A stretch of 34,178 nucleotides of DNA from a virus (taxonomy: Duplodnaviria > Heunggongvirae > Uroviricota > Caudoviricetes). Positions 3,238 through 27,628 of the stretch are shown one piece after another; position 1 is the stretch's first letter, and each line of letters starts with the position of its first letter. Under the pieces are notes generated by a model that saw only the letters and a program-made list of their open reading frames with translations, searched no databases and was not told the origin of the DNA. The stretch is from IMG/VR virus record IMGVR_UViG_2526164599_000011; one strand, written 5' to 3'. The position numbers and the translations under genes are program-made.

Positions 3238-3509
3238 GTATTCGTATTGAAATTGGCGAACGTTATGTCGTTACCAGTGACAGCTTTCAGTTTATTCTCC
3301 ACGAGAAAAAGAGAGCGGAAAGCGGTAAAAACGCCGGTCAGGAATGGCTGGCGGTGGTTGGTTATTACCCGAAATTAGGCCAGCTCGTTTCCGGCCTGAT
3401 GCATCACGATATTCTGACCGGAAGCGCAAAATCTTTTGCTGATTTAAACGCGCAGGTTGAGCAACTCAGCAAGCGTTGTTCAGAGGCTTTTGGCTCATAT
3501 GGCCGTTAA
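3234..3509 (+). CDS. Hypothetical early protein (P2 orf83-like position)
   Basis: 91-aa ORF; its start overlaps the previous stop and its end overlaps the A start. Confidence 0.5.
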   Translation: MSIRIEIGERYVVTSDSFQFILHEKKRAESGKNAGQEWLAVVGYYPKLGQLVSGLMHHDILTGSAKSFADLNAQVEQLSKRCSEAFGSYGR

Positions 3510-5775
3510 AGCCTCCGGGCGTTTTGTCCCTCCGTCAGCATTTACCGCAGGCACCGGTAAGGCGTTTACCGGTGCTTATGCATGGAACGCGCCACGCGAG
3601 GCTGTCGGGCGCGAAAGACCTCTTACACGTGACGAGATGCGTCAGGTGCAAGGTGTTTTATCCACGATTAACCGCCTGCCTTACTTTTTGCGCTCGCTGT
3701 TTACTTCACGCTATGACTACATCCGGCGCAATAAAAGCCCGGTGCACGGGTTTTATTTCCTCACATCCACTTTTCAGCGTCGTTTATGGCCGCGCATTGA
3801 GCGTGTGAATCAGCGCCATGAAATGAACACCGACGCGTCGTTGCTGTTTCTGGCAGAGCGTGACCACTATGCGCGCCTGCCGGGAATGAATGACAAGGAG
3901 CTGAAAAAGTTTGCCGCCCGTATCTCATCGCAGCTTTTCATGATGTATGAGGAACTCTGCGATGCATGGGTTGATGCGCATGGTGAAAAAGAATCGCTGT
4001 TTACGGATGAGGCGCAGGCTCACCTGTATGGTCATGTTGCTGGCGCTGCACGTGCTTTCAATATTTCCCCGCTCTACTGGAAAAAATACCGTAAAGGACA
4101 GATGACCACGAGGCAGGCATATTCTGCCATTGCCCGTCTGTTTAACGATGAGTGGTGGACTCATCAGCTTAAAGGCCAGCGTATGCGCTGGCATGAAGCG
4201 TTACTGATAGCTGTCGGGGAGGTCAATAAAGACCGTTCTCCTTATGCCAGTAAACACGCCATTCGTGATGTGCGTGCGCGCCGCCAGGCAAATCTGGAAT
4301 TTCTTAAATCGTGTGACCTTGAAAACAGGGAAACCGGCGAGCGCATCGACCTTATCAGTAAGGTGATGGGCAGTATTTCTAATCCTGAAATTCGCCGGAT
4401 GGAGCTGATGAACACCATTGCCGGTATTGAGCGTTACGCCGCCGCAGAGGGCGATGTGGGGATGTTTATCACGCTGACCGCACCGTCAAAGTATCACCCG
4501 ACACGTCAGGTCGGAAAAGGCGAAAGTAAAACCGTGCAGCTTAATCACGGCTGGAACGATGAGGCATTTAATCCAAAGGATGCGCAGCGTTATCTCTGCC
4601 GTATCTGGAGCCTGATGCGCACGGCATTCAAGGATAATGATTTACAGGTTTACGGTTTGCGAGTCGTCGAGCCACACCACGACGGAACGCCGCACTGGCA
4701 TATGATGCTTTTTTGTAATCCACGCCAGCGTAACCAGATTATTGAAATCATGCGTCGCTACGCGCTCAAAGAGGATGGCGACGAAAGAGGAGCTGCGCGA
4801 AACCGTTTTCAGGCAAAACACCTTAACCGGGGCGGTGCTGCGGGATATATCGCGAAATACATTTCAAAAAACATCGACGGCTATGCACTGGATGGTCAGC
4901 TCGATAACGATACCGGCAGGCCGCTGAAAGACACTGCCGCGGCTGTTACCGCATGGGCGTCAACGTGGCGCATTCCGCAATTTAAAACGGTTGGCCTGCC
5001 GACAATGGGGGCTTACCGTGAACTACGCAAATTGCCTCGCGGCGTCAGCATTGCTGATGAGTTTGACGAGCGCGTCGAGGCTGCACGCGCCGCCGCAGAC
5101 AGTGGTGATTTTGCGTTGTATATCAGCGCGCAGGGTGGGGCAAATGTCCCGCGCGATTGTCAGACTGTCAGGGTCGCCCGTAGCCCGTCGGATGACGTTA
5201 ACGAGTACGAGGAAGAAGTCGAGAGAGTGGTCGGCATTTACGCGCCGCATCTCGGCGCGCGTCATATTCATATCACCAGAACGACGGACTGGCGCATTGT
5301 GCCGAAAGTTCCGGTCGTTGAGCCTTTGACTTTAAAAAGCGGCATCGCCGCGCCTCGGAGTCCTGTCAATAACTGTGGAAAGCTCACCGGTGGTGATACT
5401 TCGTTACCGGCTCCCACACCTTCTGAGCACGCCGCAGCAGTGCTTAATCTGGTTGATGACGGTGTTATCGAATGGAATGACCCGGAGGTCGTGAGGGCGC
5501 TCAAAAGCGCATTAAAACACGGCCTGAGAAGACCAAACCGTCAGCAAAGAAACGGAAACCCGTTAAAACCACATGAAATTGCACCATCGGCCAGACTGAG
5601 CCGGTCGGAGCGATTGCAAATCACCCGTATCCGCGTTGACCTTGCTCAGAATGGAATCTTGCCCCAGCGATGGGAGCTTGAGGCGCTGGCGCGTGGGGCA
5701 ACCGTAAATTATGACGGGAAAAAATTCACGTATCCGGTTGCTGATGAGTGGTCGGTTTTTTCAATTAAACAATAA
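3499..5775 (+). CDS. A: Replication initiation protein A (rolling-circle HUH-type endonuclease, P2 gpA-like)
   Basis: 758 codons from ATG 3499 (ORF extends upstream to 3457); P2 gpA is about 761 aa. HUH-like motif PHWHMMLF and the tyrosine-bearing segment GYIAKYISKNIDGY are present. Last gene of the early operon. Confidence 0.85.
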   Translation: MAVKASGRFVPPSAFTAGTGKAFTGAYAWNAPREAVGRERPLTRDEMRQVQGVLSTINRLPYFLRSLFTSRYDYIRRNKSPVHGFYFLTSTFQRRLWPRIERVNQRHEMNTDASLLFLAERDHYARLPGMNDKELKKFAARISSQLFMMYEELCDAWVDAHGEKESLFTDEAQAHLYGHVAGAARAFNISPLYWKKYRKGQMTTRQAYSAIARLFNDEWWTHQLKGQRMRWHEALLIAVGEVNKDRSPYASKHAIRDVRARRQANLEFLKSCDLENRETGERIDLISKVMGSISNPEIRRMELMNTIAGIERYAAAEGDVGMFITLTAPSKYHPTRQVGKGESKTVQLNHGWNDEAFNPKDAQRYLCRIWSLMRTAFKDNDLQVYGLRVVEPHHDGTPHWHMMLFCNPRQRNQIIEIMRRYALKEDGDERGAARNRFQAKHLNRGGAAGYIAKYISKNIDGYALDGQLDNDTGRPLKDTAAAVTAWASTWRIPQFKTVGLPTMGAYRELRKLPRGVSIADEFDERVEAARAAADSGDFALYISAQGGANVPRDCQTVRVARSPSDDVNEYEEEVERVVGIYAPHLGARHIHITRTTDWRIVPKVPVVEPLTLKSGIAAPRSPVNNCGKLTGGDTSLPAPTPSEHAAAVLNLVDDGVIEWNDPEVVRALKSALKHGLRRPNRQQRNGNPLKPHEIAPSARLSRSERLQITRIRVDLAQNGILPQRWELEALARGATVNYDGKKFTYPVADEWSVFSIKQ

Positions 5776-5919
5776 TGGCTACTGCCGCAGCGTTGTGGGA
5801 ATGCTATAGTGTTTGTAGAATTATCCCATGAAAAACAACTAATTAATCTGTTTTTCATATTGAACTAATTTTTTATGGCCACAGTTGTTAAAAAGTGAGA
5901 ACATAATCTTGTTCAAAAC

Positions 5920-5960
5920 CTGCTTCTATATACGGAGGCTTTCGCTATAATACGCGGTCG
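5920..5960 (+). promoter_or_regulatory. Putative sigma70-type promoter for the methyltransferase gene
   Basis: TATAAT at 5946-5951 inside an AT-rich tract, about 25 nt upstream of ATG 5977; -35 element is weak (CTTCTA around 5923-5928). Strong SD AGGAGG at 5966-5971. Confidence 0.25.
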
Positions 5961-5976
5961 GTTTTAGGAGGGGATA

Positions 5977-6921
5977 ATGCCAACAGTAGTTTCACTTTTT
6001 TCTGGATGCGGTGGTTCCGATGCGGGGGTTCTGAGAGCTGGCTTTGATGTGCTTATGGCCAACGATATCTTGCCGTATGCGCGCGATGTTTATATTGCCA
6101 ATCATCCAGAAACTGATTACATTTTAGGCAATATTGCTGATGTAACTACTTTTCCTAAATCTGATTTGCTAGTAGGTTGTTATCCATGTCAGGGATTCAG
6201 CCAGGGTGGTGCGCGTAAGGCCGATCGAAAAATTAATACTCTTTATTTAGAGTTTGCTAGAGCTTTAAACAATATAAAGCCTAAAGCTTTTATAGTAGAA
6301 AACGTGTCTGGTATGGTTAGAAAAAACTTCGAGCATTTGTTATCTGACCAGATCAGGGTTTTTACTGAAGCAGGTTATGCTGTTTCAGCAAAAGTTTTGA
6401 ATGCGGCTGAATATGGAGTAGCGCAGGAAAGAAAAAGAATATTTATCGTAGGAATCCGTAATGATTTCAAAGTTAAGTACGAGTTCCCTCAGCCAACTCA
6501 TGGGCCGGCGACTGGCGTCAACTATGTTACTATTAAAGATGCTATAGGGCATTTACCTGAATGGCCAGAAGGTGAATTTTATGATATGGGGTTCCATTGG
6601 TATTATATGTCTCGCAATCGTCGCCAAGATTGGGATCAAATTTCAAAGACAATAGTTGCTAATGCAAGGCATATGCCGTTGCATCCTATCAGTCCTTCGA
6701 TGGAGAAAGTAAGAACTGATGAATGGAGGTTTGTTGAGGATCGGAGAGCTCGCAGATTCAGTTTTCGAGAGGCAGCACTATTACAAGGGTTTGAGGATCT
6801 AGTGTTTCCCGAAACAAATGCTGCAAGTCTTGGCATGAAATACACGGTGGTTGGTAATGCAGTGCCTCCGCCGCTTTTTGAAGCTGTAACGAAGGCATTG
6901 CCAATAGAATTATGGGATTGA
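5977..6921 (+). CDS. DNA (cytosine-5)-methyltransferase
   Basis: 314 aa with canonical C5-MTase motifs: FSGCGG (motif I, AdoMet binding), GCYPCQGFSQGG (motif IV, catalytic PCQ), ENV (motif VI), QERKR (motif VIII), GNAVPPPL near the C-terminus (motif X). Strong SD; gene is visibly more AT-rich than the phage backbone. Confidence 0.9.
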   Translation: MPTVVSLFSGCGGSDAGVLRAGFDVLMANDILPYARDVYIANHPETDYILGNIADVTTFPKSDLLVGCYPCQGFSQGGARKADRKINTLYLEFARALNNIKPKAFIVENVSGMVRKNFEHLLSDQIRVFTEAGYAVSAKVLNAAEYGVAQERKRIFIVGIRNDFKVKYEFPQPTHGPATGVNYVTIKDAIGHLPEWPEGEFYDMGFHWYYMSRNRRQDWDQISKTIVANARHMPLHPISPSMEKVRTDEWRFVEDRRARRFSFREAALLQGFEDLVFPETNAASLGMKYTVVGNAVPPPLFEAVTKALPIELWD

Positions 6922-6928
6922 TAAGCTA

Positions 6929-7921
6929 TTAAGGCTCTGGATTTAATGTATAAAGTTCTTCTTCAAATTCGCGAAACCAATCAGAGGTAGTTATCGCTTC
7001 CCATTGGTTTGCCTTATCAAGTAGATATATGATCCTCAACCTATCTAATAATAATACACCAGCGGTTGCATGTGTGCTTACCCATTCGCCATTTGCTTCC
7101 CGATAGAAAACAGGCGTGAACATTGTTGATGGATGCTGGAAAGCAATTTGGAAATAGGTGGTCAGTTTTAACACGTTAGCCTCTAATGTTTTGCTTGGCC
7201 ACCCTGTTTCTTGTGCACCACATTGACCAAGAATTCCATAGTTGCTAGTTTGACCATCAGGAAATTCCACTGTAGCAATTAGGTCAAACCCAGCATCACC
7301 AGATGTGGGAGCTTTATTTATTTCCCTTGTGTTTAAACTACAAACTCCAAGATCTTTTCCTAAAATTTGTAGAGCATTCCGAAGATTCGTTCCATAATAT
7401 TTTTGCCTATCATCGGAGTTAGCATCAAAAATTCTTACGGTGCCATGTGCAGGTAAGAGAGAAATCATTGCAACTTTACATACTCTGGCAAAGCTCTTTG
7501 CCCAACGTTGTGCTGCTCCTCTAATCGACTTAAAGGATCTAAGTCTAGAGCAACAAAGGAGAAAAACATATATTCTTTGTTGTTGGTTTAGATTTTCTTT
7601 AATAATTATCTCATCACCTGAAATTATAAATGGATATATCTTTCCAAGAGCGCTTTCTCTATATTCGAGTTGTGTCCAAACATCTTCTAGTTGCTCTTCA
7701 AAACGATCATTTCTCTCTGCGTCTCCATCAATTTCTTCTTCAAAATTACATTCTTCATCAATTTCTTCAACACTTGTCATGCCGAATTTTCTTACTGAAT
7801 CTAAATCATTTTTATGCAGAGAGTTACGTCCGATATAATTAATCACCGTGAGTAACTCGGCTAAATCTGCAAACAAATGGGGAGAGTTGGGATGCATAAC
7901 TCCTACTTCAAAAGTCATCAT
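6929..7921 (-). CDS. Hypothetical protein, family not recognised; convergent with the MTase, downstream partner of the ParB-like gene
   Basis: About 330 aa; GTG at 7924 then ATGs at 7921 and 7918; start overlaps the stop of the upstream ParB-like gene (TGA 7908-7910). Acidic N-terminal region (EEIDEECNFEEEIDGDAERNDRFEEQLED). Stop TAA at 6929-6931 is 7 nt from the MTase stop. AT-rich. Confidence 0.7.
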   Translation of the reverse strand: MMTFEVGVMHPNSPHLFADLAELLTVINYIGRNSLHKNDLDSVRKFGMTSVEEIDEECNFEEEIDGDAERNDRFEEQLEDVWTQLEYRESALGKIYPFIISGDEIIIKENLNQQQRIYVFLLCCSRLRSFKSIRGAAQRWAKSFARVCKVAMISLLPAHGTVRIFDANSDDRQKYYGTNLRNALQILGKDLGVCSLNTREINKAPTSGDAGFDLIATVEFPDGQTSNYGILGQCGAQETGWPSKTLEANVLKLTTYFQIAFQHPSTMFTPVFYREANGEWVSTHATAGVLLLDRLRIIYLLDKANQWEAITTSDWFREFEEELYTLNPEP

Positions 7922-9029
7922 CACCTCTGCTATTTTTCTCTGCTATTTCAGAACCTATAAGCTTAATATGTTTATTGATTCTTCGTGCTACTTCATGAGC
8001 CTGTCTATCATACTCTACTGTGGCAACCATGCCTGCTGCATCTATCAAAGCCGCTTCAACTTGATAAAGTAACTGGAGAAAGTCCTTAGTAATATCAGAT
8101 GTCAATTGGTAGGCCACTGCGAGTGGAGCCCCCATTCGGAATTGCTCCAATGCCTTAGGGCTACTAACAACAGCAGCTAATTCTCTTAAATTACGTGACT
8201 CTCCAACACGAGTTTTTTTATCCTCACCTTTTTTATATAACCACTCAGTTAGCTCTTTTATTTCTTTGTTCTTTAAGCTATTAGAGTTGATAATAGGATG
8301 ACTTGGTATTGTGTCTCCATCGTCTTCGATTGAAACTCCGACAAATTGGCCTAACCGCTCATCAGCAAGTGCTGTTGATAATACTGAAAATTTAATCGTT
8401 TCTTCATCTAGTTTTTCAATACCATAAAAATCATTTTCTTTAATGATTTCATACACCGCTAAAGCGTCTAGGTTACGCTTGATATGATCCCTACGACTGC
8501 CAATAGCTCTGGCAACCTCATAGTAGCGTAGCATCGGATCCTGATTTGCATTGGTATAATCAAAAAGCTGTTTAATATATCGAGCTTTTGATAAGGGCTC
8601 CCATTGTTTGACACCAGTAATATGTCTGAAACCAAGATACGGAAGAATCTCTTCTCTTGTTTGGCGCTCAATGACAGGAACACGATCGACTGTATGTTTT
8701 GCATTTGATGCAATTTCTCGTAGTCGAGCACTTGGATTTTCACATAGTGTCGGATCGCGTAATAATTTAACTGCGGATAGGCGACGGTTTCCTTCAACTA
8801 CAATGTACTTCCCCGGCGCGACACTGTCAGGAATGACAATCAATGGTTCTCCAGGGAAAAAACCATTTTCCGCAATAGCACTCATTAGATCTTCGATAGA
8901 TGTTGAGGTTGCTATGTAGTTAATCATTCCCAATTGGTCACGAGACACGCCTTCAGGAAGTCTTGGGTTTTCTGTGTCAAGTTCCAAATCATCTAGCGGA
9001 ACATAAAGTATTTCTGAATCAGCAATCAT
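7908..9029 (-). CDS. ParB/Srx-like N-terminal domain protein (ParB-type nuclease/NTPase fold), function unknown
   Basis: 373 aa; N-terminal ILYVPLDDLELDTENPR...GEPLIVIP...YIVVEGNRRLSAV matches the ParB box I / GxxRxxA box II pattern. SD GGAG 7-10 nt upstream of ATG at 9029. AT-rich; first gene of a two-gene leftward operon. Confidence 0.75.
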   Translation of the reverse strand: MIADSEILYVPLDDLELDTENPRLPEGVSRDQLGMINYIATSTSIEDLMSAIAENGFFPGEPLIVIPDSVAPGKYIVVEGNRRLSAVKLLRDPTLCENPSARLREIASNAKHTVDRVPVIERQTREEILPYLGFRHITGVKQWEPLSKARYIKQLFDYTNANQDPMLRYYEVARAIGSRRDHIKRNLDALAVYEIIKENDFYGIEKLDEETIKFSVLSTALADERLGQFVGVSIEDDGDTIPSHPIINSNSLKNKEIKELTEWLYKKGEDKKTRVGESRNLRELAAVVSSPKALEQFRMGAPLAVAYQLTSDITKDFLQLLYQVEAALIDAAGMVATVEYDRQAHEVARRINKHIKLIGSEIAEKNSRGDDDF

Positions 9030-9255
9030 CTGGATCTCCGTTGAACATGTCTACGAGAAGGAGCACAAAGTTATTTCATAACATGCAATATACTCATTCT
9101 GTAGCCATAAATGAATTATTCATGATGTAAGATTCGCGTTGATGTGCGTGAATTCGCAAGTAATTTTATAGCAAGGTTTGATTGGGTATCGTTAGCACTG
9201 GCGCGGTTTCAACGTATTCATGCACCTGCATTAAAACCGACCCATGAAGCGGGCG

Positions 9256-9274
9256 GGCGAGGCGGGGAAAGCAC
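9256..9274. other. Probable cos site (19-nt cohesive end of P2-type phages)
   Basis: GGCGAGGCGGGGAAAGCAC at 9256-9274 matches the P2 cohesive-end sequence as I recall it, and lies about 170 bp from the end of portal gene Q where P2 cos sits. Sequence identity is from memory and not verified. Confidence 0.6.
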
Positions 9275-9443: not shown

Positions 9444-10478
9444 TCAGCCGTTGTCAGTGTCCAGTGAGTAGTTTTTAAAGCGGATGACCTCCTGACCGAG
9501 CCAGCCGTTTATCTCGCGGATCCTGTCCTGTAACGGGATAAGTTCATTGCGGACAAAGACCTTTGCCACTTTCTCAATATCACCCAGCGACCCGACGTTC
9601 TCCGGCTTGCCACCCATCAACTGAAAGGGGATGCGGTGCGCGTCCAGCAGGTCAGCGGCGCTGGCTTTTTTGATATTAAAAAAATCGTCCTTCGTCGCCA
9701 CTTCACTGAGGGGGATAATTTTAATGCCGTCGGCTTTCCCCTGTGGGGCATAGAGAAACAGGTTTTTAAAGTTGTTGCGGCCTTTCGACTTGACCATGTT
9801 TTCGCGAAGCATTTCGATATCGTTGCGGTCCTGCACGGCATCGGTGACGTACATGATGTATCCGGCATGTGCGCCGTTTTCGTAATACTTGCGGCGGAAC
9901 AGCGTGGCCGACTCATTCAGCCAGGCAGAGTTAAGGGCGCTGAGATATTCCGGCAGACCGTACAGCTCCTGATTAATATCCGGCTCCAGCAGGTGAAACA
10001 CGGAGCCGGGCGCGAAAGGTGTCGGCTCGTTGAAAGACGGCACCCACCAGTAAACATCCTCCTCCACGCCACGACGGGTATATTTGGCCGGTGAGGTTTC
10101 CAGTCTGATGACCTTACCGGTGGTGCTGTAACGCTTTTCCAGAAACGCATTACCGAACACCAGAAAATCCAGCACAAAACGGCTGAAATCCTGCTGGGAA
10201 AGCCACGGGTGCGGGATAAACGTTGAAGCCAGAATATTACGTTTGACGTAAATCGGTGAGCTGTGATGCACGGCAGCACGCAGACTTTTTGCCAGGCCGG
10301 TAAAGCTGACCGGTGGCTCATACCATCTGCCGTTACTGATGCACTCGACGTAATCCAGAATGTCACGCCGGTCGAGTACCGGTACCGGCTCACCAAAGGT
10401 GAATGCCTCCATTTTCGGGGCGCTGGCGGTCATTGTTTTTGCCGCAGGTTGCGGTGTTTTCCCTTTTTTCTTGCTCAT
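9444..10478 (-). CDS. Q: Portal protein (P2 gpQ-like)
   Basis: 344 aa, identical in length to P2 gpQ; leftward, adjacent to cos, followed by the terminase large subunit with start/stop overlap at 10478-10480. Confidence 0.9.
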   Translation of the reverse strand: MSKKKGKTPQPAAKTMTASAPKMEAFTFGEPVPVLDRRDILDYVECISNGRWYEPPVSFTGLAKSLRAAVHHSSPIYVKRNILASTFIPHPWLSQQDFSRFVLDFLVFGNAFLEKRYSTTGKVIRLETSPAKYTRRGVEEDVYWWVPSFNEPTPFAPGSVFHLLEPDINQELYGLPEYLSALNSAWLNESATLFRRKYYENGAHAGYIMYVTDAVQDRNDIEMLRENMVKSKGRNNFKNLFLYAPQGKADGIKIIPLSEVATKDDFFNIKKASAADLLDAHRIPFQLMGGKPENVGSLGDIEKVAKVFVRNELIPLQDRIREINGWLGQEVIRFKNYSLDTDNG

Positions 10479-21106: not shown

Positions 21107-22110
21107 GTGAGGAATAATGAGCACAAAATTCAGAACCGTTATCACCACTGCCGGTGCAGCAAAGCTGGCAGCGGCAACCGCGCCGGGAGGGCGGAAGGTC
21201 AACATTACCACGATGGCCGTCGGGGATGGCGGTGGTAAATTGCCTGTCCCGGATGCCGGACAGACCGGGCTTATCCACGAAGTCTGGCGACATGCGCTGA
21301 ACAAAATCAGCCAGGACAAACGAAACAGTAATTATATTATCGCAGAGCTGGTTATTCCGCCGGAGGTGGGCGGTTTCTGGATGCGTGAGCTTGGCCTGTA
21401 CGATGATGCGGGAACGTTAATTGCCGTGGCGAACATGGCCGAAAGTTATAAGCCAGCTCTTGCCGAAGGCTCAGGGCGTTCGCAGACCTGCCGCATGGTC
21501 ATCATCGTCAGCAGTGTGGCCTCAGTGGAGCTGACCATTGACACCACAACGGTGATGGCGACGCAGGATTACGTTGATGACAAAATTGCAGAGCACGAAC
21601 AGTCACGACGTCACCCGGACGCCTCGCTGACCGCAAAAGGTTTTACTCAGTTAAGCAGTGCGACCAACAGCATGTCTGAAATGCTTGCCGCAACGCCAAA
21701 AGCCGTTAAGACGGTAATGGATGAAACGAACAAGAAAGCGCCATTAAACAGCCCTGTACTGACCGGAACGCCAACGACGCCAACTGCGCGACAGGGAACG
21801 AATAATACTCAGATCGCAAACACGGCTTTCGTTATGGCCGCGATTGCCGCCCTTGTAGACTCGTCGCCTGACGCACTGAATACGCTGAACGAGCTGGCGG
21901 CGGCGCTGGGCAATGACCCGAATTTTGCTACCACCATGACTAATGCGCTTGCGGGTAAGCAACCGAAAGATGCTACCCTGACGGCGCTGGCGGGGCTTGC
22001 TACTGCGGCAGACAGGTTTCCGTATTTTACGGGGAATGATGTTGCCAGCCTGGCAACCCTGACAAAAGTCGGGCGGGATATTCTGGCTAAATCGACCGTT
22101 GCCGCCGTTA

Positions 22111-22115
22111 TCGAA
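22111..22115. repeat. Target-site duplication (TCGAA), left copy, flanking IS2
   Basis: TCGAA immediately 5' of the IS2 left terminus; identical 5-mer immediately 3' of the right terminus; IS2 makes 5-bp duplications. Confidence 0.8.
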
Positions 22116-22206
22116 TAGACTGGCCCCCTGAATCTCCAGACAACCAATATCACTTAAATAAGTGATAGTCTTAATACTAGTTTTTAGACTAGTCATTGGA
22201 GAGCAG

Positions 22207-22572
22207 ATGATTGATGTCTTAGGACCGGAGAAACGCAGACGGCGTACTACACAGGAAAAGATCGCTATTGTTCAGCAGAGTTTTGAACCGGGAATGACGG
22301 TCTCCCTTGTTGCCCGGCAACACGGTGTGGCAGCCAGCCAGTTATTTCTCTGGCGCAAGCAATACCAGGAGGGAAGTCTTACTGCTGTGGCCGCAGGAGA
22401 GCAGGTCGTTCCTGCCTCTGAACTTGCTGCTGCCATGAAGCAGATTAAAGAACTCCAGCGCCTGCTCGGCAAAAAAACGATGGAAAATGAACTCCTTAAA
22501 GAAGCCGTTGAATACGGGCGTGCAAAAAAGTGGATAGCGCACGCGCCCTTATTGCCCGGGGATGGGGAGTAA
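22207..22572 (+). CDS. insC: IS2 transposase OrfA (InsC, HTH DNA-binding component)
   Basis: 121 aa from ATG 22207; sequence [52 protein letters not shown] is recognisable as IS2 InsC. Confidence 0.9.
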
Positions 22573-23435
22573 GCTTAGTCAGCCGTTGTCTCCGGGTGTC
22601 GCGTGCGCAGTTGCACGTAATTCTCAGACGAACCGATGACTGGAAAGATGGTCGCCGCAGCCGTCACTCAGATGATACGGATGTGCTTCTCCGTATACAC
22701 CATGTTATCGGAGAGCTGCCCACGTATGGTTATCGTCGGGTATGGGCGCTGCTTCGCAGACAGGCCGAACTTGATGGTATGCCTGCGATCAATGCCAAAC
22801 GTGTTTACCGGATCATGCGCCAGAATGCGCTGTTGCTTGAGCGAAAAACCGCTGTACCGCCATCGAAACGGGCACATACTGGCAAAGTGGCCGTGAAAGA
22901 AAGCAATCAACGATGGTGCTCTGACGGGTTCGAGTTCCGCTGTGATAACGGAGAAAAACTGCGAGTCACGTTCGCGCTGGACTGCTGTGACCGTGAGGCA
23001 CTGCACTGGGCAGTCACTACGGGCGGCTTCGACAGTGAAACAGTACAGGACGTAATGCTGGGAGCGGTGGAACGCCGCTTCGGCAACGAGCTTCCGGCGT
23101 CTCCAGTAGAGTGGCTGACGGATAATGGTTCATGCTACCGGGCTAATGAAACACGGCAGTTTGCCCGGATGTTGGGGCTTGAACCGAAGAACACGGCGGT
23201 GCGGAGTCCGGAGAGTAACGGCATAGCAGAGAGCTTCGTGAAAACGATAAAGCGTGACTACATCAGTATCATGCCTAAACCAGACGGGTTAACGGCAGCA
23301 AAGAACCTTGCAGAGGCGTTCGAGCATTATAACGAATGGCATCCGCATAGTGCACTGGGTTATCGCTCGCCACGGGAATATCTGCGGCAGCAGGCCAGTA
23401 ATGGGTTAAGTGATAACAGGTGTCTGGAAATATAG
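22530..23435 (+). CDS. insD: IS2 transposase OrfB (InsD, DDE catalytic domain), normally expressed as an OrfAB fusion by -1 frameshift
   Basis: 301-aa ORF with DDE-type integrase-core sequence (WCSDGFEF...DNGSCY...ESNGIAESF); A AAA AAG slippery heptamer at 22524-22530 in the overlap with insC. Confidence 0.9.
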
Positions 23436-23446
23436 GGGCAAATCCA

Positions 23447-23451
23447 TCGAA
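23447..23451. repeat. Target-site duplication (TCGAA), right copy, flanking IS2
   Basis: Identical to the 5-mer at 22111-22115, directly abutting the IS2 right terminus. Confidence 0.8.
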
Positions 23452-24475
23452 TATCTCGGTTTACAGGAAACGGTAAACCGAGCCGGGAACGCCGTGCAAA
23501 AAAATGGCGATACCTTGTCCGGTGGACTTACTTTTGAAAACGACTCAATCCTTGCCTGGATTCGAAATACTGACTGGGCGAAGATTGGATTTAAAAATGA
23601 TGCCGATGGTGACACTGATTCATTCATGTGGTTTGAAACGGGGGATAACGGCAATGAATATTTCAAATGGAGAAGCCGCCAGAGTACTACAACAAAAGAC
23701 CTGATGAATCTTAAATGGGATGCTTTGTATGTTCTTGTCAATGCCATTGTAAATGGCGAAGTCATATCAAAATCAGCAAACGGCCTACGTATTGCTTATG
23801 GTAATTACGGATTCTTTATTCGTAATGATGGTTCAAATACATACTTCATGTTGACAAACTCCGGTGACAACATGGGGACTTATAACGGATTAAGGCCATT
23901 ATGGATTAATAACGCTACTGGCGCTGTTTCGATGGGGCGTGGCCTTAATGTTTCAGGGGAGACGCTTTCAGACCGTTTTGCTATTAACAGCAGTAATGGT
24001 ATGTGGATTCAGATGCGCGATAACAACGCTATCTTTGGGAAAAATATAGTTAACACTGATAGCGCTCAGGCGTTGCTTCGCCAGAATCACGCTGACCGCA
24101 AGTTCATGATAGGTGGACTGGGGAACAAGCAATTTGGCATCTACATGATTAATAACTCAAGGACAGCCAATGGCACCGATGGTCAGGCGTACATGGATAA
24201 TAACGGTAACTGGCTTTGTGGCTCGCAAGTTATTCCCGGCAACTATGGCAATTTTGATTCCAGATATGTGAAAGATGTTCGACTTGGTTCACAGCAATAT
24301 TATGGAGTTAACAACTGGCAAACATGGAATTTCCAGTGCCCGTCAGGTCATGTATTGTCTGGTATTAATGTTCAGGATACAGGGTCCAACTCTGCCGATA
24401 ATATAGCGGGCGTTTATTACAGACCCGTTCAAAAGTATATAAATGGCACCTGGTATAATGTAGCGAGCGTTTAAT

Positions 24476-25003
24476 ATGATGCACTTAAAGAACATAAAAG
24501 CGGGTAACGCTAAAACACTGGAACAGTATGAGTTAACAAAGAAACACGGAGTTATCTGGCTTTACTCTGAGGACGGAAAAAACTGGTATGAGGAAGTGAA
24601 GAACTTTCAGCCAGACACAATAAAGATTGTTTACGATGAAAATAATATTATTGTCGCTATCACCAGAGATGCTTCAACGCTTAATCCTGAAGGTTTTAGC
24701 GTTGTTGAGGTTCCTGATATTACCTCCAACCGACGTGCTGACGACTCAGGTAAATGGATGTTTAAGGATGGTGCTGTGGTTAAACGGATTTATACGGCAG
24801 ATGAACAGCAACAACAGGCAGAATCACAAAAGGCAGCGTTACTTTCCGAAGCGGAAAGCGTTATTCAGCCACTGGAACGCGCTGTCAGGCTGAATATGGC
24901 GACGGATGAGGAACGTGCACGACTGGAGTCATGGGAACGCTACAGCGTTCTGGTCAGCCGTGTGGATCCTGCAAATCCTGAATGGCCGGAAATGCCGCAA
25001 TAA
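24476..25003 (+). CDS. G: Tail fibre assembly chaperone (P2 gpG-like)
   Basis: 175 aa (P2 gpG 175 aa); immediately downstream of H. Confidence 0.85.
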
Positions 25004-25218: not shown

Positions 25219-26118
25219 ATGAGTGGTATTCGTATAACTCAGGCTATTGATAACAATCAGATTTTAGTCAATGTAAATACTTTTAATTATAGTGTTAATC
25301 CCTATCCACTCAAATGTCCTGACCCAAATTGCTCTGCTCATTTGGTGTATGTCAAAAGCCATATTCGTCGGAGTTTTAATAAAACCTTGCATATCCCCGC
25401 CTTCTTTAGACTGGAAAAAAATTTCACGCATGACAAATTATGTCAGTATGGAACTTCAGGATTGAATACAATTTATGCAAGTGATTCCAGTCATGATATC
25501 AGCCGTGCGCTTGCCACAGGTAATAATATATTCCGTATACATATACTCGATGAAGATGATATCTCTAAATTAAGCAGAAAAGCTGCAGCTATGCAGGCAA
25601 ATCCACCTTCTGATACTACAGACCGCGTTTATGTCAAGAGAGGTCGGAAAGCCCCCTATGTGAAGAACATGGATAGCTTACGGGAGATCTATGAATATGG
25701 AAAAGCTCACCCCAACAAGAGAAACAGCATAAAAATTGTTACTGGAACAAGTACTGTAACGTGGTCTGATTTTTTCTATGAAACAACGCAGTTAGAACGA
25801 TTGTCAACTTACCTCCAGAAAGTAAAAATAGCTCAGGTTGCTGTAATTATGAAAGTGCATGTGGCGAGAATCCCTATGGCGAAATTTAATTATCGACACT
25901 TCATTGAAGGTTCGCCAATGAGGATAAAAGGGGGCTTTAATATATATCCTACGATTCAATTAGGAAATGTTACTCCAAAATTATTTCCGTTGAGTAGCAT
26001 TGTCATGGTACTCGGTAAATTTACTATTCCAACAAATAGAAAAATGATAATGGATCCAACATTTGAGCGTGAAGTCAGAACCATAGTTTCTAGTGAAGAG
26101 CAAGTGCTAATTCTTTGA
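25219..26118 (+). CDS. Hypothetical 299-aa protein, family not recognised; AT-rich cargo gene at the P2 Z/fun position
   Basis: ATG at 25219 with strong SD GGAGG; 299 aa; much more AT-rich than the flanking tail genes, with AT-rich non-coding DNA on both sides (25004-25218 and 26119-26437). Contains CPDPNCSAH near the N-terminus; no family assigned by eye. Confidence 0.7.
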   Translation: MSGIRITQAIDNNQILVNVNTFNYSVNPYPLKCPDPNCSAHLVYVKSHIRRSFNKTLHIPAFFRLEKNFTHDKLCQYGTSGLNTIYASDSSHDISRALATGNNIFRIHILDEDDISKLSRKAAAMQANPPSDTTDRVYVKRGRKAPYVKNMDSLREIYEYGKAHPNKRNSIKIVTGTSTVTWSDFFYETTQLERLSTYLQKVKIAQVAVIMKVHVARIPMAKFNYRHFIEGSPMRIKGGFNIYPTIQLGNVTPKLFPLSSIVMVLGKFTIPTNRKMIMDPTFEREVRTIVSSEEQVLIL

Positions 26119-26437: not shown

Positions 26438-27628
26438 ATGAGCGACTATCATCATGGCGTGCAGGTGCTGGAGATTAACGACGGCACCCGCGTCATTTCC
26501 ACTGTATCCACCGCCATTGTCGGCATGGTCTGCACGGCCAGCGATGCGGATGCGGAAACCTTCCCCCTCAATAAACCGGTGCTGATTACCAATGTGCAGA
26601 GCGCAATTGCAAAGGCTGGTAAAAAAGGCACGCTGGCGGCATCGTTGCAGGCCATCGCTGACCAGTCAAAACCGGTCACCGTTGTTGTGCGTGTGGAAGA
26701 CGGCACCGGCGACGACGAGGAAACGAAACTCGCGCAGACCGTATCCAATATCATCGGCACCACCGACGAAAACGGTCAGTACACCGGACTGAAAGCCCTG
26801 CTGGCGGCGGAGTCGGTAACCGGTGTTAAACCGCGTATTCTCGGCGTGCCGGGGCTGGATACCAAAGAGGTGGCTGTTGCACTGGCATCAGTCTGTCAGA
26901 AGCTGCGCGCTTTCGGGTATATCAGCGCATGGGGCTGTAAAACCATTTCCGAGGTGAAAGCCTACCGCCAGAATTTCAGCCAGCGTGAGCTGATGGTCAT
27001 CTGGCCAGATTTCCTCGCATGGGATACGGTCACCAGTACCACCGCCACCGCGTATGCCACCGCCCGTGCGCTGGGTCTGCGCGCTAAAATCGACCAGGAG
27101 CAGGGCTGGCATAAAACGCTGTCCAATGTCGGGGTAAACGGTGTTACCGGCATCAGTGCCTCTGTATTCTGGGATTTGCAGGAGTCCGGCACCGATGCTG
27201 ACCTGTTGAACGAGTCAGGTGTCACAACGCTGATTCGCCGTGACGGTTTCCGCTTCTGGGGTAACCGTACCTGCTCTGATGACCCGCTGTTCCTCTTTGA
27301 AAACTACACCCGCACCGCGCAGGTGCTGGCCGACACGATGGCTGAGGCGCACATGTGGGCGGTGGACAAGCCCATCACCGCAACGCTGATTCGCGACATC
27401 GTTGACGGCATCAATGCCAAATTCCGTGAGCTGAAAACAAACGGCTATATCGTGGATGCGACCTGCTGGTTCAGCGAAGAATCCAACGATGCGGAAACCC
27501 TCAAGGCCGGAAAACTGTATATCGACTACGACTATACACCGGTGCCTCCTCTTGAAAACCTGACCCTGCGCCAGCGTATTACCGATAAATACCTGGCAAA
27601 TCTGGTCACCTCGGTTAACAGCAATTAA
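26438..27628 (+). CDS. FI: Contractile tail sheath protein (P2 gpFI-like)
   Basis: 396 aa (P2 gpFI 396 aa); SD GGAG upstream; first gene of the FI-FII-E-T-U-D operon. Confidence 0.9.
   Translation: MSDYHHGVQVLEINDGTRVISTVSTAIVGMVCTASDADAETFPLNKPVLITNVQSAIAKAGKKGTLAASLQAIADQSKPVTVVVRVEDGTGDDEETKLAQTVSNIIGTTDENGQYTGLKALLAAESVTGVKPRILGVPGLDTKEVAVALASVCQKLRAFGYISAWGCKTISEVKAYRQNFSQRELMVIWPDFLAWDTVTSTTATAYATARALGLRAKIDQEQGWHKTLSNVGVNGVTGISASVFWDLQESGTDADLLNESGVTTLIRRDGFRFWGNRTCSDDPLFLFENYTRTAQVLADTMAEAHMWAVDKPITATLIRDIVDGINAKFRELKTNGYIVDATCWFSEESNDAETLKAGKLYIDYDYTPVPPLENLTLRQRITDKYLANLVTSVNSN

Follow-up and report, generated by a model that had tools for sequence, protein, structure and literature searches.

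We analysed a 34,178-nucleotide stretch of Caudoviricetes DNA (IMG/VR virus record IMGVR_UViG_2526164599_000011; hereafter "the window", with positions counted from its first letter), which represents a P2-like prophage of E. coli. Our analysis was centred on a gene for a C5 cytosine DNA methyltransferase (the methylase) and on the two genes that lie between it and the phage portal gene. Together, these three cargo genes occupy the interval between the replication gene gpA and the portal gene, beside the cohesive-end site of the phage. The principal features of this region are as follows.

5977..6921, plus strand: open reading frame (ORF) of the C5 cytosine DNA methyltransferase, 314 amino acids, ATG start
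6929..7918, minus strand: partner 2, a 329-amino-acid protein (phrog_3984), convergent with the methylase gene, its stop codon 7 bp from that of the methylase
7908..9029, minus strand: partner 1, a 373-amino-acid ParB/Srx-fold protein with a helix-turn-helix-like middle domain and a helical C-terminus; the gene overlaps that of partner 2 by 11 nt
3457..5775, plus strand: gpA replication endonuclease, left flank of P2 hotspot 1 ("replication endonuclease" in the ATCC 8739 annotation)
9444..10478, minus strand: gpQ portal protein, right flank of P2 hotspot 1 (annotated "phage portal protein")
9256..9274, plus strand: P2 cos cohesive-end 19-mer GGCGAGGCGGGGAAAGCAC, an exact match (0.03 expected by chance)

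The region 5700–9200 is 100% identical to the corresponding sequence of E. coli TW10590 and 99.9% identical to that of ATCC 8739, where the P2-like prophage adjoins cpxP. The cargo differs in composition from the rest of the window (40.8% versus 53.1% GC). We found it in its entirety in Yersinia phage HQ103 and in 48 of the 5426 complete E. coli genomes. We take the 19-mer GGCGAGGCGGGGAAAGCAC to be the P2 cos sequence; ~227 bp separate it from the ParB-like gene start, which places the cargo near one end of the packaged linear genome. An intrinsic-terminator-like site (9438–9423) directly follows the gpQ portal gene. In phage P2, the gpA–portal hotspot holds old and tin, and several other defence systems have been validated at this position (Rousset et al, 2022; Vassallo et al, 2022).

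The methylase is a full-length C5 cytosine methyltransferase and an ordinary new member of the HaeIII-like group. Its translation contains all the core motifs in canonical order (I, IV, VI, VIII, IX, and X), including FSGCGG (residues 8–13), PCQ (residues 70–72) with the catalytic Cys71, ENV (residues 108–110), QERKR (residues 150–154), motif IX (RRFSFREAALLQGF), and motif X (GNAVPPPL). Residues 3–308 match the Pfam family PF00145 (E = 5.2e-65; 220.4 bits against a cut-off of 22) over model positions 2–322 of 324, and the protein scores 191.7 bits against TIGR00675 (dcm), for which the curated cut-off is 100.65. Based on this conservation, the enzyme appears catalytically competent. These matches bear out the original prediction, made from the letters alone, that the core motifs of a C5 methyltransferase are present in 314 residues, and the position of the gene inside a P2-like prophage hotspot agrees with its description there as prophage cargo. 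The accompanying suggestion that the protein is unusually compact, with a small target-recognition domain, did not hold: the Pfam model spans 324 positions, the crystallised chains of M.HaeIII and M.HhaI comprise 324–331 and 327 residues, respectively, and the recognition domain is HaeIII-like.

Comparison with methyltransferases of solved structure allowed us to predict the target of this enzyme. M.HaeIII (PDB 1dct, 324 residues) aligns end to end with the methylase through the target-recognition domain (residues 4–308, E = 2.8e-48), whereas M.HhaI (327 residues) aligns only across the catalytic half (residues 5–174). The identity to M.HaeIII is ~40% overall and, as counted by hand from the alignment, ~46% in the core of the recognition domain. 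In M.HaeIII, the residues S224, R225, and R227 are reported to contact the bases of GGCC, and the R243Q substitution moves specificity off this sequence (PMC3526282). The aligned residues of the methylase are S212, R213, R215, and R231, and their equivalents are kept in the orthologues of phage Wphi and Pseudomonas phage D14A. Because of this recognition-domain alignment and the conservation of the four M.HaeIII specificity residues, we predicted GGCC as the target and, most likely, its inner cytosine as the modified base. GGCC is present in the window at 0.66 of the expected frequency. This sequence is generally under-represented in E. coli DNA, and we therefore rejected its depletion as an uninformative clue to specificity. 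We also observed that GATC is strongly depleted in the prophage window (observed/expected 0.28).

The 329-amino-acid protein returned no match in Pfam, NCBIfam, or PADLOC and only families of unknown function in PHROGs, and no sequence relatives were found among solved structures. Its structural model shows an N-terminal winged helix followed by a C-terminal core resembling that of PD-(D/E)XK restriction endonucleases. The best fold matches for the C-terminal half were restriction endonucleases, with modest scores. Subfamilies that are only 26% identical still share residues D208, D212, D/E221, Q232, K243, and E246. The lysine is displaced from the canonical (D/E)xK position, and this, together with the modest fold scores, led us to regard the assignment of this modelled protein as a PD-(D/E)XK-like nuclease as probable rather than established; DNA cleavage would be its expected activity. 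The family is large, comprising 1237 clusters at 50% identity (E ≤1e-3), all of them stand-alone proteins of ~300–365 residues. The original prediction placed a convergent 331-residue gene at this position; the orientation was correct, and RefSeq gives a length of 329 residues from the ATG at 7918.

The genes for the ParB-like and 329-amino-acid proteins overlap by 11 nt and form one operon. Residues 9–192 of the ParB-like protein match the PADLOC models for PD-Lambda-5_A (best E = 1.6e-28). Its matches to ParB models are weak and fall below the curated cut-offs for partition proteins. In a fold search, the ParB-family protein KorB was the best match, followed by other ParB/Srx proteins. Within the family, the DxxNPR motif (containing the NPR of Box I) and the EGNRR motif (Box II) are invariant, and the Box II arginines are kept; the GNRRLTA segment aligns weakly with the GERRLRA box of Helicobacter pylori ParB. 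The protein is predicted to use a nucleotide (CTP or another NTP). A search of its C-terminal half for a HEPN domain or motif found neither.

The linkage of the three genes is strikingly consistent. Among the IMG/VR loci encoding the 329-amino-acid protein, the methylase gene adjoins in 28 of 28 (27 convergent and one upstream), and the ParB-like gene is present in all 27 loci that were readable at that position. The same triad was identified in each of four phages, namely HQ103, vB_EcoM-12474III, Wphi (gp98-gp96-mth), and Pseudomonas phage D14A, and in all five methylase clusters for which genomic context was examined (Klebsiella, Enterobacter, and Gibbsiella). In species-representative genomes, the methylase gene was adjacent in 12 of the 18 readable loci, which reach the Betaproteobacteria and a metagenome-assembled genome (MAG) of the Acidobacteriota, and the ParB-like gene adjoins the 329-amino-acid gene wherever the sequence could be read. 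In several loci, the 3′ ends of the methylase and partner genes overlap by 4 nt. No context that we sampled contained the methylase without both partners. One Klebsiella allele of the methylase is indexed in 987 blocks of a contig collection.

Conservation within the triad is markedly uneven, as the methylase remains 60–89% identical across loci and the 329-amino-acid and ParB-like proteins fall to 25–35%. Methylases that are ~75–78% identical to that of the window are joined to two types of partner, one ~57% and ~64% identical (329-amino-acid and ParB-like proteins, respectively) and the other ~26% and ~33% identical (loci L026, L028, and L040 compared with L003, L025, and L036). These two partner types suggest either shuffling of modules or a far stronger constraint on the methylase. 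A fixed methylation mark combined with diversifying attack partners fits a modification enzyme that serves an effector under counter-defence pressure, although recombination could also produce a constant methylase with diverging partners.

The region upstream of the methylase gene contains the following elements.

5946..5951, plus strand: candidate −10 box TATAAT of the methylase promoter, read in the sequence and invariant in seven enterobacterial orthologous loci
5966..5971, plus strand: Shine-Dalgarno sequence AGGAGG, 5 nt 5′ of the ATG, read in the sequence and conserved
5873..5884, plus strand: upstream element TTATGGCCACAG, containing a GGCC ~100 nt 5′ of the ATG; TGGCCA lies at −101 to −104 in seven of the eight loci compared

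The strong Shine-Dalgarno sequence and the candidate −10 box pointed out in the original prediction are thus both present and conserved in the seven enterobacterial loci. The alignment of upstream regions took in K. variicola, K. pneumoniae, phage Wphi, phage vB_EcoM-12474III, and Edwardsiella, with methylase proteins 75–90% identical. In these loci, the block TTTCGCTATAATACGCGGTCGG(T)TTTTAGGAGGGG is nearly invariant 5′ of the methylase orthologues, in surroundings that vary. TATAAT lies at the same distance from the methylase start in Pseudomonas phage D14A as well. The conservation of the upstream block across orthologous loci supports a real and independent promoter and leader for the methylase gene; the expression in the lysogen that the original prediction also suggested goes beyond what the sequence can show. 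The TATAAT at 5946–5951 was absent from our consensus promoter scan because no −35 hexamer with at least four of six matches lies 16–18 nt upstream. The scan returned 10 promoter-like sites in the region against 9.7 expected from shuffled sequence, that is, no excess.

The 12-mer TTATGGCYACAG is found upstream of both the methylase gene (5873–5884, plus strand) and the ParB-like operon (9099–9110, minus strand), and both copies point the same way with respect to the gene that follows. The methylase-side copy is kept in the seven enterobacterial loci and the ParB-side copy in close relatives only. The 12-mer may serve in regulation or in the sensing of methylation, or may have arisen by chance. 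We rejected TTATGGCYACAG as a shared operator for the two transcription units because the ParB-side copy is not conserved beyond close relatives and the pattern was defined post hoc.

Based on these observations, we consider it fairly probable that the methylase is the modification component of an uncharacterised three-gene, restriction-modification (R-M)-like anti-phage module residing in the gpA–portal hotspot. Methylation of host and prophage DNA would provide self-protection in the lysogen. The ParB/Srx protein with its helix-turn-helix-like domain would bind nucleotide and DNA and act as a sensor or loader, and the protein combining a winged helix with a PD-(D/E)XK-like fold is the predicted DNA-cleaving effector. 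The ParB-like/nuclease pair would then attack unmarked incoming phage DNA. In this proposal the triad would have an anti-phage function and the putative nuclease would be sensitive to methylation. Of the three roles that the original prediction offered for the methylase, the evidence most favours the first, in which it acts as the modifying partner of the convergent gene in an R-M pair; the unit, however, consists of three genes rather than two, as the ParB-like gene is co-inherited in every readable locus. For the same reason the locus departs from the Type II plan, in which a methylase and an endonuclease suffice.

Several points weigh against this interpretation. The ParB-like/329-amino-acid pair occurs without an adjacent methylase gene in six chromosomal loci (L004, L009, L012, and L015–L017) among the 18 readable genome loci, mostly in Methylococcales but also in Burkholderiaceae MAGs, and the conserved residues are intact in these copies. 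In L004, the pair comes directly after three genes of a type I R-M locus (hsdM, a gene for an AAA ATPase, and hsdS); other methylase-less pairs lie between housekeeping genes. Hosts of the pair may thus survive without this methylase, unless those genomes encode a methylase at another site. Furthermore, the GGCC target is inferred from ~40% identity to M.HaeIII and four residues, and the −35 element of the methylase promoter is poor. We found no experiment on the locus in the literature that we examined, and in particular no functional or methylome study.

A bolder version of this proposal would make the triad a new class of nucleotide-dependent R-M system. Here, the ParB/Srx protein, possibly a CTP-dependent clamp like ParB and KorB, would recognise unmethylated (GGCC) DNA, load onto it and slide, and license the separate PD-(D/E)XK nuclease, thereby taking the place of the helicase/translocase motor of Type I and Type III systems. 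The attack pair would diversify under phage counter-defence as the mark stays fixed. We give this version a modest probability.

Among tested systems, PD-λ-5 is the closest to the locus described here. This compact system is likewise prophage-borne and combines a protein carrying a ParB-like domain with a DNA methyltransferase, and it is the A protein of PD-λ-5 that the N-terminus of our ParB-like protein matches. PD-λ-5 comes from an E. coli prophage, provides broad phage defence, and could be cloned only in a host deleted for the mrr region (Vassallo et al, 2022). According to the HHpred tables of the same study, its A protein ends in a HEPN domain (RNase-type) and its B protein belongs to the N6-adenine methylases of the D12/Dam class (PF02086, MethyltransfD12) (Vassallo et al, 2022). 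In contrast to these two genes, the locus in the window has three, with a C5 methylase (PF00145), a separate PD-(D/E)XK-like protein that has no PADLOC match, and no HEPN domain found. Given the Dam-class methylase and the HEPN-bearing ParB protein of PD-λ-5, we rejected identity of the two systems; only the ParB-like domain and the general logic are held in common.

The mth-gp96-gp98 genes of phage Wphi show the same architecture in the same hotspot, and the Wphi record annotates the methylase orthologue as "mth, DNA cytosine methylase". This orthologue is 76% identical to the methylase of the window, whereas the partners are 26% (gp96) and 34% (gp98) identical and represent a deeply diverged subtype that is likewise uncharacterised. 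With HaeIII-type Type II R-M systems, the locus shares the full-length methylase alignment including the recognition domain and an adjoining, convergent gene of probable nuclease fold. It differs in that the putative nuclease lacks sequence similarity to solved structures or to Pfam, NCBIfam, and PADLOC families, and in the constant linkage of a third, ParB-like gene, which classical Type II R-M systems do not have. GmrSD, BrxU, and SspE couple a ParB/Srx-fold (DUF262) domain to a DNA nuclease in restriction and thus offer a mechanistic analogy for a sensor that drives a nuclease. These, however, are single polypeptides with an HNH/DUF1524 nuclease that target modified DNA without a cognate methylase. 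The locus in the window instead has separate proteins, a PD-(D/E)XK-like fold, and a linked methylase, and showed no DUF262 or DUF1524 match in Pfam.

The best PADLOC match of the methylase is DruM2 of Druantia type II (E = 1e-113), and DrmMII of DISARM matches as well. We rejected membership in either system, as no DruE, DruF, DruG, or Drm helicase genes are present and the neighbouring genes match other families. The largest ORFs of the window encode 815 residues (in the P2 late region) and 772 residues (gpA), and none exceeds 815. The locus itself has been catalogued before: besides the "mth" annotation in Wphi, a supplementary table of P2 hotspot loci lists it as "DNA_methylase + hypothetical + ParBc" (Rousset et al, 2022). 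The accessions given there for the methylase and the ParB-like protein each differ in a single digit from their ATCC 8739 counterparts. The other supplementary files of that study, including the tables of tested systems, contain no ParB-containing system, and the locus is not among ranks 6–83 of its frequency table. Two further papers, on M.BatI and on a Burkholderia P2-like phage, describe methylases unrelated to this locus. What our analysis adds is the context of the methylase, the enzyme itself being routine.

The alternative that we weighed most seriously supposes that the methylase and the ParB-like/329-amino-acid pair are functionally separate and co-travelling ("R-M plus Abi", the latter for abortive infection), so that the pair would be a defence or abortive-infection module acting independently of methylation and the methylase would, for example, shield phage and host DNA from other GGCC-type nucleases. 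We retained this explanation because of the six loci in which the pair, with its residues intact, has no adjacent methylase gene. The methylase tree also does not follow the partner tree, as methylases of ~76% identity accompany partners of 57% or 26%, and PD-λ-5 was itself termed a compacted "RM+Abi" system (Vassallo et al, 2022). Set against these points are the invariance of the triad in the 28 viral loci and in all phage contexts sampled, in none of which the methylase appears without the pair, and the tight convergent packing with 4-nt overlaps of the 3′ ends; linkage across phyla would be hard to explain without functional dependence. On balance, we judge such a separation unlikely. The absence of any solitary copy in the sampled contexts also disfavours the two other roles named in the original prediction, those of an orphan anti-restriction enzyme and of an epigenetic regulator. 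As an orphan, the methylase would modify the P2-like genome during lytic growth, allowing the progeny to evade GGCC-cutting enzymes of new hosts. Solitary phage-borne C5 methylases are indeed common, and a promoter-like region of its own, a strong ribosome-binding site, and a sequence more conserved than those of its neighbours would suit this role. We nevertheless regard it as quite improbable, as the hotspot is defined by defence cargo, the same partners are found in non-phage chromosomal loci, and two conserved partner genes would be left without explanation.

Two further explanations appear far less plausible. Regulation of host or prophage expression, of the phase-variation or Dam/CcrM-like kind, would draw on the conserved GGCC ~100 nt 5′ of the methylase's own start codon, since 5-methylcytosine (5mC) in promoters can alter transcription. 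We saw neither a regulatory partner nor a phase-variable repeat in front of the methylase gene, however, and the linkage to a nuclease-like protein and the location in a defence hotspot point elsewhere. Mobile cargo carried by 48 of 5426 complete E. coli genomes is also a poor candidate for a core regulator, and we consider this role very unlikely. It is similarly hard to credit that the ParB-like protein serves maintenance of a prophage or plasmid state, through partition or through handling of cos or other DNA, with the methylase and the 329-amino-acid protein as accessories of phage DNA metabolism. The ParB fold, the helix-turn-helix domain, and the distance of 227 bp to cos are compatible with such a function, and putative partition systems occupy about a quarter of P2-like hotspots (Rousset et al, 2022). 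Yet there is no partner gene of the ParA/StbA type, the ParB match falls below the curated partition cut-offs, and the best PADLOC matches are to defence families. The pair is also found in chromosomal, non-phage loci, once inside a type I R-M operon.

The three-gene module is common and lies in a hotspot with validated defence systems, and we found no report of its having been tested. Should it prove to be R-M-like with a ParB-fold protein at its centre, it would represent a new mode of self/non-self discrimination at the DNA level and would account for some of the immunity to superinfection that Enterobacteriaceae gain from P2-like prophages. GGCC 5mC introduced by such prophages would have consequences for cloning and transformation when the host is McrBC+ or Mrr+, as well as for the interpretation of methylomes. 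A methylase that produces GG(5mC)C should not be compatible with hosts encoding McrBC; K-12-type mcrBC was identified in only 597 of the 5426 complete E. coli genomes, and laboratory strains account for many of these.

Several observations concern the prophage outside the cargo. An IS3-family transposase gene (rve domain; annotated in TW10590) at ~22321–23549, with its ORF at 22530–23435, splits the tail-fibre gene into fragments at 21117–22118 and 23410–24474, the upstream part being annotated as a pseudogene. The strand given for this transposase in the TW10590 annotation table disagrees with that of the ORF in the window. This copy of the prophage is probably defective for the production of infective particles and has retained its cargo. 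A Gibbsiella prophage carries two PF00145 methylase genes, that of the hotspot and another upstream of gpA (locus L040, positions 1–467). Finally, the window contains an ORF of 299 amino acids (25219–26118, plus strand) between the tail-fibre assembly gene (24476–25003) and the tail sheath gene (26438–27628), which has no match in Pfam or PADLOC. The second P2 hotspot, at the fun/Z position, is reported to hold defence genes (Vassallo et al, 2022), and this ORF at the same position is a candidate defence gene.

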